Positions 3,201 through 6,200 of a stretch of DNA of 10,287 nucleotides are shown in pieces. A program made the position numbers. The stretch is from positions 1-10,287 of the IMG/VR virus record IMGVR_UViG_2541047728_000006. One strand, written 5' to 3'. The stretch is from a virus (Duplodnaviria; Heunggongvirae; Uroviricota; Caudoviricetes). Positions within the stretch are counted from its first letter, which is position 1. Each line of letters opens with the position of its first letter.

Positions 3201-6200
3201 GTGTATTTTTCAAACATCGCGCGTTTATCGAGCAATATACGCATAAACAACGCCGCGCCGACGGTATTGGTGACCATCATTGGCGCAGCAATATTACTCA
3301 CCAGACGCACCGCATCTTCATAAGGTCGGGCGATCGCCAGGATAATCAACATTTGCACCATTTCAGCGACGAACGTGACGGCACCGGCGGTAATGGGGTT
3401 AAAGACTTTATCAGTGCGCCCGCGACGGATCAGGATGCTGTGTACCAGGCCACCGAGCAATCCTTCAACGATGGTCGAGATCATGCAACTTAGCGCGGTC
3501 ATGCCCCCCATCGAATATCGATGTAACCCGCCGGTCAGACCAACCAGCCCACCGACGACCGGACCGCCGAGTAAGCCGCCCATTACCGCACCTATCGCAC
3601 GGGTATTGGCAATAGAATCGTCAATGTGCAACCCAAACCAGGTGCCCATGATGCAGAAGATGGAAAAGACGATGTAGCAGAGAAATTTATGCGGCAGACG
3701 AACCGTGACCTGCATTAACGGTATGAATAATGGCGTTTTACTCATTAACCACGCAATGACTAAAAAAACGCACATCTGCTGAAGCAGCAGCAACACCAGA
3801 TTAAAATCGTACATACCCGCAAACCACACTTCCCTTTAAAACGCGTAACATACATTGCTTGCGTTTAACTTTCTTTGAACTCTTGCAGAAAAATGAGAAT
3901 TCGTGAGTACGATCACTCAAAATCGCCTGGCAAAAATAAAATCACCCTATAGATGCACAAAAAACGGGCAAAACTACCTGGTTCGCAAAACTGCGTCTAA
4001 AGTTAAACCGGGACCTCGCGAGCAAGGGTGAGACGATGGCGCTTTACACAATTGGTGAAGTGGCGTTGCTTTGTGATATTAACCCTGTCACGTTACGCGC
4101 GTGACGCAACATTTTTAAAAATCGACGAAGATCGTCCAGGAGCGCCATTTTTCAAGGGTTGGACAGATGATTCGTTTTCGATGTCGACGAACTTCGACGG
4201 ATTTCGCCGATAAAAAGTGTCCCATACATGCCCCATAGATGCCCCATAGGCAATATTACCAATTGACACTGGTTATCCACACAGCTAAAAATAACACCTG
4301 TACATAACTACAGTTACAGGAGGGGGTTATGCGTGTTGAGATCTGTATCGCTAAAGAAAAAATCAGCAAAATGCCGAAAGGTTCTGTTCCTGCTCTGCAG
4401 CAAGAAATGCTGCGCCGCATAGGTAAGCGATATGACGATGCAGATGTGATCGTTAAATCTGCCAGCAATGATGGACTCACCATTTTAAGAGCCGTCGATA
4501 AAGAATCAGCACTGGAGTTCGTACAGGAAACACTACAGGAAGTCTGGCAAACCGCGGACGACTGGTTTATGCAATAACGGGATCATAATCACTGTAATGA
4601 CCTGTTTTGTATGACATTCTTAAAAGGCATAACAACGAGCTTGTCGTTTCAAGCGACTTCTTCTGGTTGGGGAGCCTGAGTGCTCCCCTTTTTTTCAGCT
4701 AAAAATCAGCATACAGCCATACAATCCCGCACAGGCCACCACCGGCACCACAAAATCCATCAGACTGGCCACATTCCACACACGCGGATCAAAACCGCCC
4801 CACCACGGCATGTTCTGTCTGTGACCATCACCAAAACGCTTAATCCAGCGATATTCTGCCTGGGTATGTTCTCGGGCAATAAAGAACGTACAACCCGCTA
4901 TCGCTCCGTAAACCCAGTCACCGGTAATGCACCCGACCAGCCCCTGCACGGCTACTGCACAAATTGCATGAAGTATCGGCGTGATATCCATCTGCTCCCC
5001 TTAAAACCACTCCCTGAGCGGGCGCTCTGGTGTAACCACCCACTCACGGAACACGGATTCATCAAAGCCATCGTCAAGAAGACGAATATTAACAAAGTAC
5101 CCTTCGTCTCGCGTGTATTCAGGCTCCCCGTCAGCAGAAACACCTGACTCACTGAACGTAAAACCAATCTCATCAACCAGAACGGCATTCTGCAGCTCTT
5201 CGTCCTCTTCCCAGTTAAGTTTCCTGAGAAATGCCCTGAAATCTGCTTTATCACTGAAACGCAACGTGAAATCTCTCACTCCACAACCTCCCCAAGCTGC
5301 GCATCTGTTAGCTCTTTATGCCAGAGACGAAAATTCCTCACATGCCCAAATAAATGGCGTAATCCTGCTGTAGTTTGTCCACCAATGCGAATGGTTGCTG
5401 TACTCCGGATATATTCCCATGTGGTTTTTGTTTCGCTGGATATACGCCCGTTACTTACTGCACATGTAGACTGATCTGACTTTACACGCATCCCCATAAC
5501 CATTTTTTTCAACGATGCGTTTTCGTTAACACGCCTATTTGATCCACCAATATCGCAATAAGGAAATCCGTCTGGCCCATCTGCCGAAGATCCGAAGCCA
5601 AGAATAATAGCCGCTCCGGTTTGATGACCGCCGGTATCAAAAACACGTGGCGCTGCATTTGGCGTTTTATACCAGTTCTTATGTACCTCACAAAGAACCG
5701 TAAAAGGAAGATTATAAAGATTATTCTTAATCGGAACTGTAACCATATCGCTTGCGCGCGTCGCCGCCGTCGTTCCTGATATAATAAAAGATGATACACA
5801 CGAACCATCCTCAACCTGAGGGGTGGCCAGATAAATATAGTCACCAGATTCAACGACACCACCTTTTTTTGGTGCGTATTGTATTGCAGAGGTTATGTAA
5901 GTTTCTTTACTTGCTTGAATCGTTGCCTCTACAAAAATCCAGCCCGTAGCTTCATCTTTGTTAACTCGTGCGGTGAGCCTGTCGGCAGCTACACCGGTGA
6001 TTTCAACCAATAAAGACCGCGTATTAACAATGGTATATCCAAGATTAGATGAAGCGCTGCCATCGAAGGCTTCAAACCTGATCCTTAACAGGAGTTCCAA
6101 ATCCGTTTTAAATCTGCACGATGTCGTCACACACTTATTATCGCCTGATACATCGACAGCCCCCGAGGTTGAAACTACTGCCATATTAAGGGTTGTACTT

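Follow-up and report, generated by a model that had tools for sequence, protein, structure and literature searches.

Why does the mlrA (yehV) gene of an Escherichia coli strain stop after 22 codons in a sequence that is held as a virus record, and is any MlrA activity to be expected from the pieces of the gene that are left? This question is raised by a stretch of 10,287 nucleotides (nt), positions 1 to 10,287 of IMG/VR record IMGVR_UViG_2541047728_000006 (Caudoviricetes), and by "the window" we mean this whole stretch. In draft assembly GCA_000457005.1, its reverse complement makes up the final 10,287 bases of scaffold KE699426.1, which is 255,303 bp long. The best explanation of the whole, which we hold with high confidence, is that window 4083-4103 is the attL attachment site of a lambdoid prophage of the Sp15/VT1-Sakai integration type, located inside mlrA. 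Judging from the sequence, inactivation of MlrA is almost certain, and it would be reversed by excision of the prophage.

The open reading frame (ORF) that starts with the ATG at 4036 on the plus strand translates to MALYTIGEVALLCDINPVTLRA and ends with the TGA at 4102-4104, with MlrA residues 1-22 encoded by window 4036-4101. Intact mlrA of strain N58 (3437-4168 of its retrieved region) agrees base for base over these codons but continues with TGG (Trp23), and comprises 243 codons in total. The third base of codon 23 is thus G in N58 mlrA versus A in the window, and the junction TGA is a hybrid, with TG taken from the attachment core and A from phage DNA. A continuous 243-codon mlrA ORF was not encountered in the window, where the stop follows codon 22. 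Both a three-way alignment and megablast placed the end of mlrA identity exactly at window 4103, and alignment with intact mlrA showed no mlrA similarity downstream of that position. Window 600-4103 aligned with the intact yehR-btsS-mlrA locus at 99.5% identity without gaps. For megablast, a 1-kb query centred on the junction was compared with 5,426 complete E. coli genomes, and in every genome with an annotated intact mlrA the match covered query bases 1-504 only, that is, up to window 4103. A sequence-only reading made beforehand had described this ORF as the first 22 residues of MlrA followed by TGA in place of TGG, had proposed from it that a lambdoid prophage splits mlrA, and had called for an alignment with the intact gene. 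Translation and the comparison with N58 agree with that description, its coordinates (4036-4110) are accurate, and the alignment yielded the breakpoint at 4103 together with a shared 21-bp core at 4083-4103. The proposed split was borne out as well, since mlrA identity ends at 4103 and phage ORFs lie beyond it. "After codon 22" refers to the right end of this shared core, and the true crossover lies somewhere within the core.

The core was defined by aligning intact mlrA (attB), the window (attL) and the int-side junctions (attR) of UPEC129 and FDAARGOS_1283, the two genomes examined among relatives with 98.6-99.6% identity to the window. The window has a single copy of the core, which in mlrA begins with the last base of codon 16 and ends with the middle base of codon 23, and the last 20 of its 21 bases are the annotated attachment site in the VT1-Sakai GenBank record. 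The mlrA sequence from codon 23 onward, GCAGAGGCGTTACGG, is expected 3′ of a second core copy, and CCCTGTCACGTTACGCGCGTGGCAGAGGCG would mark this second, int-side junction. In FDAARGOS_1283, which is 99.6% identical over window 213-10287, the core is found twice, the copies being 46,395 bp apart, and the second copy has xis and int before it and the remaining part of mlrA, then yohO and yehW, after it. UPEC129 showed the same arrangement, with the same core at the int-side junction and a prophage of similar size. A second core with xis-int and distal mlrA at the other end was seen in these closest complete genomes, that is, in relatives of the source genome. Their Int is identical to that of VT1-Sakai at 427 of 428 positions, and their Xis at 84 of 84.

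Everything to the right of the junction had been called phage-like in the sequence-only reading, and Pfam and PHROG matches for the ORFs right of 4104 agree. The lambdoid late and tail genes J, lom and side tail fibre were all identified, by Pfam, PHROG and phage-collection matches, and RefSeq annotation of the co-linear regions of UPEC129 and FDAARGOS_1283 agrees with the phage gene calls. The junction had also been assigned to the tail-fibre side of the prophage, which is correct, as tail fibre, lom and J lie here and int-xis at the opposite end in the relatives. The caution that the window does not allow a judgement on stx stands, with the scaffold ending in gene J. In the prophages of UPEC129 and FDAARGOS_1283, no stx was found by annotation or by tblastn with Stx1A/B. 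Both prophages have a Stx-phage-like late layout without stx, made up of Q, a methylase fragment, tRNA genes, a nanS-p esterase, DUF1378, DUF826 and a holin, at 27576-31130 of the retrieved UPEC129 region and 29545-35457 of the retrieved FDAARGOS_1283 region. The late region of FDAARGOS_1283 also contains a phage-borne ompC and a tolA-like gene.

According to the mechanism we propose, the phage entered by site-specific recombination mediated by the tyrosine recombinase Int, between attP and the identical 21-bp sequence in mlrA codons 16-23, and the integration module is that of the Stx1 phages VT1-Sakai/Sp15 and BP-4795. The promoter and codons 1-22 are thereby parted from codons 17-243, which lie ~46 kb away in the relatives, just downstream of int. 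Excision mediated by Xis and Int, for example after SOS induction, would be expected to restore mlrA precisely, because the int-side core of the relatives is identical to the attL core of the window. Excision has been reported for Sp15 (PMC5931665), and spontaneous or induced excision regenerates mlrA (PMC5931665, citing Shaikh and Tarr 2003; Uhlich et al. 2013, 2016; PMC3874044). In O157:H7, mlrA was restored after excision, but cured or restored cells were rarely recovered (PMC5931665).

No evidence contradicting the junction itself was found, and the points that weigh against our interpretation concern the rest of the prophage. The draft scaffold ends inside gene J, so the prophage is divided between scaffolds in the source assembly, and we infer its int-side junction and its completeness from the relatives. 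The interiors of these relatives are mosaic, with lambda-like versus HK97-like head genes, the HK97-like one carrying the phage ompC, and their content, including the absence of stx, is not safely transferable to the source genome; extrapolation is safe for the two prophage ends only. In the closest relative the portal gene is frameshifted, and inducibility is uncertain. The prophage could instead be a fixed, defective remnant that does not excise, with a permanent loss of mlrA, and we consider this possible, at well below an even chance. The frameshifted portal gene fits such a remnant, as do the truncated phages found at yehV in stx1-negative O157:H7 (PMC8309913), and prophage integrity is not readable from a scaffold that stops in J. 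However, the phage ORFs of the window are all intact, the relatives have perfect cores and full-length int and xis that are near-identical to those of the excision-proficient Sp15, and a defective head gene would prevent the formation of virions but leave excision unaffected. A prophage that may still excise from mlrA is the reading we prefer.

Whether MlrA could act while the prophage is in place depends on the two pieces of the gene. The MerR-type helix-turn-helix (HTH) comprises MlrA residues 4-72 (Pfam), which places the split within the DNA-binding domain. The proximal piece retains its native upstream region and encodes 22 residues only, and it is labelled 'incomplete, missing C-terminus' in the relatives by the Prokaryotic Genome Annotation Pipeline (PGAP). 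The distal piece is found in the relatives 36 nt downstream of the int stop, on the same strand. In its frame, a stop lies five codons upstream of the position that corresponds to codon 10, and no ATG, GTG or TTG was present before TTG29. No DNA-binding MlrA would be expected, because the cut falls in the winged HTH and the distal piece has neither a promoter nor a canonical start. Prophage insertion has been shown to disrupt the DNA-binding motif of mlrA, with reduced curli, Congo-red binding and biofilm (PMC5931665, PMC3874044, PMC8309913), and these studies back the earlier statement that such insertions are reported to abolish MlrA-dependent curli expression and biofilm formation. By analogy with this published work, MlrA-dependent csgD activation would be abolished or strongly reduced in the source strain, and curli, cellulose and biofilm would be lost or low.

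MlrA activity might nevertheless survive through a truncated distal protein produced by read-through from int, possibly acting through its C-terminal domains, although we regard this as quite improbable. In its favour are the shared strand and the short distance between int and distal mlrA, and the PGAP/RefSeq annotation of the distal piece as a complete 228-residue 'HTH-type transcriptional regulator MlrA', not a pseudogene. Distal mlrA fragments also showed strong run-off transcription after induction, and recombinant fragments partly restored Congo-red binding (PMC5931665). However, the annotated start is an ATC (codon 16), the first canonical start is TTG29 and the first HTH helix is missing. 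In the same study, the run-off transcription did not restore csgD expression, biofilm was not rescued and DNA binding was judged unlikely (PMC5931665). The 228-residue MlrA call is a homology-driven annotation and not evidence of a functional gene. It is located at 11791-12477 on the minus strand of the UPEC129 region and at 47217-47903 on the plus strand of the FDAARGOS_1283 region.

An assembly chimera, in which mlrA was joined to an unrelated prophage contig, has next to no chance of being the explanation. The draft assembly is indeed gapped, the window ending at a 1,715-N gap within an IS100 copy on one side and at the scaffold end inside gene J on the other, and prophage repeats often break assemblies. 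However, the identical junction is found in 442 complete genomes and in the curated VT1-Sakai record, the breakpoint is located exactly at the known att core, and the 10 kb around the junction are free of Ns. A chimera was excluded on the grounds that hundreds of closed genomes have this junction at the known core. A nonsense mutation alone (TGG to TGA), with mlrA otherwise intact, would account for the one base that differs at codon 23, but it is ruled out by the loss of all mlrA similarity beyond 4103, where phage DNA follows.

When the attachment site is compared with a lambda-type att, its sequence patterns are compatible with core-type inverted repeats around a 6-8 bp overlap and with arm-type repeats on both arms. 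The imperfect inverted repeat in and next to the core probably represents the core-type Int sites, by analogy with lambda, and its centre TTACGCG a putative 7-bp overlap for strand exchange. A scan flagged the hairpin at 4086-4106 as terminator-like; we read it instead as the core inverted repeat. In addition to the direct repeats of the P′ arm, a third repeat copy, AAAGTGTCCCATGTATGCCCCATA, was found in the 3′ end of int, on the opposite arm. In the reconstructed attP, the motif AAAGTGTCCCATryATGCCCCATA is positioned at -75 and +131 relative to the core, with an extra ATGCCCCATA at +156. These arm repeats are conserved in VT1-Sakai and phi330, and the direct repeats on both arms are probably arm-type Int-binding sites.

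A contiguous attP is covered at 90.5% identity by phage phi330 (PV189401.1), in which the int-side arm is joined to the P′ arm. The phi330 'complete genome' record contains the 20-bp att core twice in tandem, at about 1760-1800 of the compared region. We rejected phi330 as independent proof of attP, as the tandem core looks like an artefact of circularising a prophage with both att copies. Stx2 phages with integration sites at yecE or ompW have a P′ arm ~91% identical to that of the window (4104-4290), and in a yecE phage the 21-bp duplication, CCCGTCACTTTAACTGCATGA, is similar to the mlrA core. These integration modules may be related, with cores that have diverged to match different host targets.

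The features of the window are listed in Table 1. The left flank represents the normal mlrA locus, because btsS is present, and the intergenic region next to btsS is the putative native mlrA promoter region. The chromosomal part of the window matches genomes of the extraintestinal pathogenic E. coli (ExPEC) type at 99.5-100%. The IS100 copy sits in the 3′ end of yehQ (window 1-269), where the last yehQ codons are lost, with a 5-bp TTATT target duplication. Its istA piece is 100% matched to annotated IS100 istA copies on plasmids, with HTH Pfam matches as well, and the IS100/yehQ junction was present in none of the 5,426 complete E. coli genomes. On the phage side, the promoter-like and LexA-box-like sequences upstream of the dinI-like gene suggest that a RecA modulator is expressed under SOS control at this end of the prophage, in the direction away from the mlrA fragment. 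The two small ORFs downstream of the tail-fibre gene had no Pfam match and, by position, may encode tail-fibre assembly or accessory proteins.

Table 1. Coordinates of chromosomal, attachment-site and phage features in the window.
Feature	Position	Strand	Description and evidence
IS100 (IS21-family) left end	1..212	-	Terminal inverted repeat and istA codons 1-42 (126..1); outside the prophage
btsS (yehU), sensor kinase	2129..3814	-	RefSeq annotation of co-linear regions; chromosomal neighbour of mlrA
btsS-mlrA intergenic region	3815..4035	+	Native mlrA upstream region, unaltered; co-linear with intact loci
mlrA′ proximal fragment	4036..4104	+	Codons 1-22 and TGA; translation, alignment with intact mlrA
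att common core, attL copy	4083..4103		CCCTGTCACGTTACGCGCGTG, 21 bp; shared by attB, attL and attR
Imperfect inverted repeat	4086..4106		TGTCACG (4086-4092) and CGTGACG (4100-4106) around 7-bp TTACGCG (4093-4099)
Phage P′ arm	4104..4328	+	Runs to the dinI-like gene; 97% identical to VT1-Sakai attL over 305 nt
Direct repeats	4214..4248	+	AAAGTGTCCCATACATGCCCCATA (4214-4237), then ATGCCCCATA (4239-4248)
Promoter-like TTGACA-18-AAAAAT	4263-4292	+	Consensus scan; same position annotated as putative promoter in VT1-Sakai
LexA-box-like CTGT-N8-ACAG	4298-4313	+	Consensus scan; annotated as SOS box in VT1-Sakai
dinI-like gene, 82 residues	4329..4577	+	Pfam DinI 6.7e-17, PHROG 189, RefSeq annotation of relatives
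Two small phage ORFs, 98 and 92 residues	4695..5279	-	PHROG 1443 (1e-47), PHROG 1361 (3e-38); downstream of tail-fibre gene
Side tail-fibre gene, 686 residues	5276..7336	-	Pfam phage_tail_N 9e-67, PHROG 1419
lom (Ail/Lom outer-membrane protein), 199 residues	7488..8087	-	Pfam Ail_Lom 5e-127
Tail-tip host-specificity gene J, C-terminal 710 codons	8155..10287	-	Pfam Ig_J, Phage_Tail_Tip, Ig_GpJ_C; cut by scaffold end

About 9% of complete E. coli genomes have an occupied mlrA site. A 201-nt probe for the intact site was contiguous in 4,944 of the 5,426 genomes (91%), and the remainder break at the core. At least 80% of the 1-kb attL query was shared by 442 of the 5,426, and as a rough reading from identity bands, most of these have the O157-type arm (~93% identity) and a minority the type of the window. 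At least 80% of the whole window is present in 40 genomes, among them IAI39 and UPEC129, and most of these are human isolates. Among GTDB species representatives (one genome per species), the exact attL junction gave a single match, to an E. coli strain, and was found in the representative of no other species.

The event is already known: mlrA is a textbook integration site with a known mechanism and consequence, it is commonly occupied in E. coli, and the subject has been published since about 2000-2016. No new question is opened by the junction. It does explain the expected MlrA-negative state of the source strain, which probably forms little curli, cellulose and biofilm at low temperature. 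A resident prophage that shares the Stx1-phage integration module bears on annotation, on phenotype prediction and on the availability of yehV for acquisition of Stx1 phages, and the 228-residue 'MlrA' annotation can hide the disruption from surveys of gene presence. By analogy with O157:H7, a stx-negative prophage with the Sp15 module might act in ExPEC or commensal lineages as an SOS-responsive reversible switch, turning curli and cellulose back on in a subpopulation, and an int-driven distal MlrA fragment might also modulate the DgcM/PdeR-MlrA module. We think this unlikely; if true, it would extend to another pathotype what was explored in O157:H7.

Finally, the attachment site and the prophage can be compared with known systems. 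Like lambda attP/attB, the site has an inverted repeat around a 7-bp centre in the core and repeats ~75 bp to the left and ~130-160 bp to the right. Unlike in lambda, one putative arm site lies inside the coding end of int, and the site sequences are unrelated.

The use of mlrA/yehV as a documented integration site, including that of Stx1 phages, had been pointed out in the sequence-only reading, in agreement with the literature and with VT1-Sakai, which occupies the same site. VT1-Sakai/Sp15 (and CP-933V) share with the window the same attB in mlrA and the same core, annotated there as 20 bp. The attL of VT1-Sakai is identical to the window junction for 111 nt and 97% identical over 305 nt, a stretch that includes the dinI promoter and the SOS box. 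Its orientation is the same, with dinI, tail fibre, lom and J at this end and xis-int at the other, and in the VT1-Sakai record yehV is given as 'divided by the insertion of prophage'. In contrast, the tail region is 85-92% identical and matches VT1-Sakai in patches only, and the host chromosome, at 96.3% identity, is not O157-like. The prophages of the relatives also differ from VT1-Sakai in having no stx1AB and in their replication and head modules. For the Stx1 phage BP-4795, whose int end is shared by other phage records, the start of its record is 100% identical to the int 3′ end and core half of the reconstructed attP; this comparison covers the integration module only, and BP-4795, unlike the relatives' prophages, carries stx1. 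Non-Stx lambdoid phages at yehV have been documented (PMC8309913), and such prophages, in O157:H7 TW14359 and stx1-negative strains, resemble those of UPEC129 and FDAARGOS_1283 in being lambda-like occupants of the site without stx. The documented cases are from O157:H7, whereas the background in which the present prophage is found resembles extraintestinal or commensal lineages.

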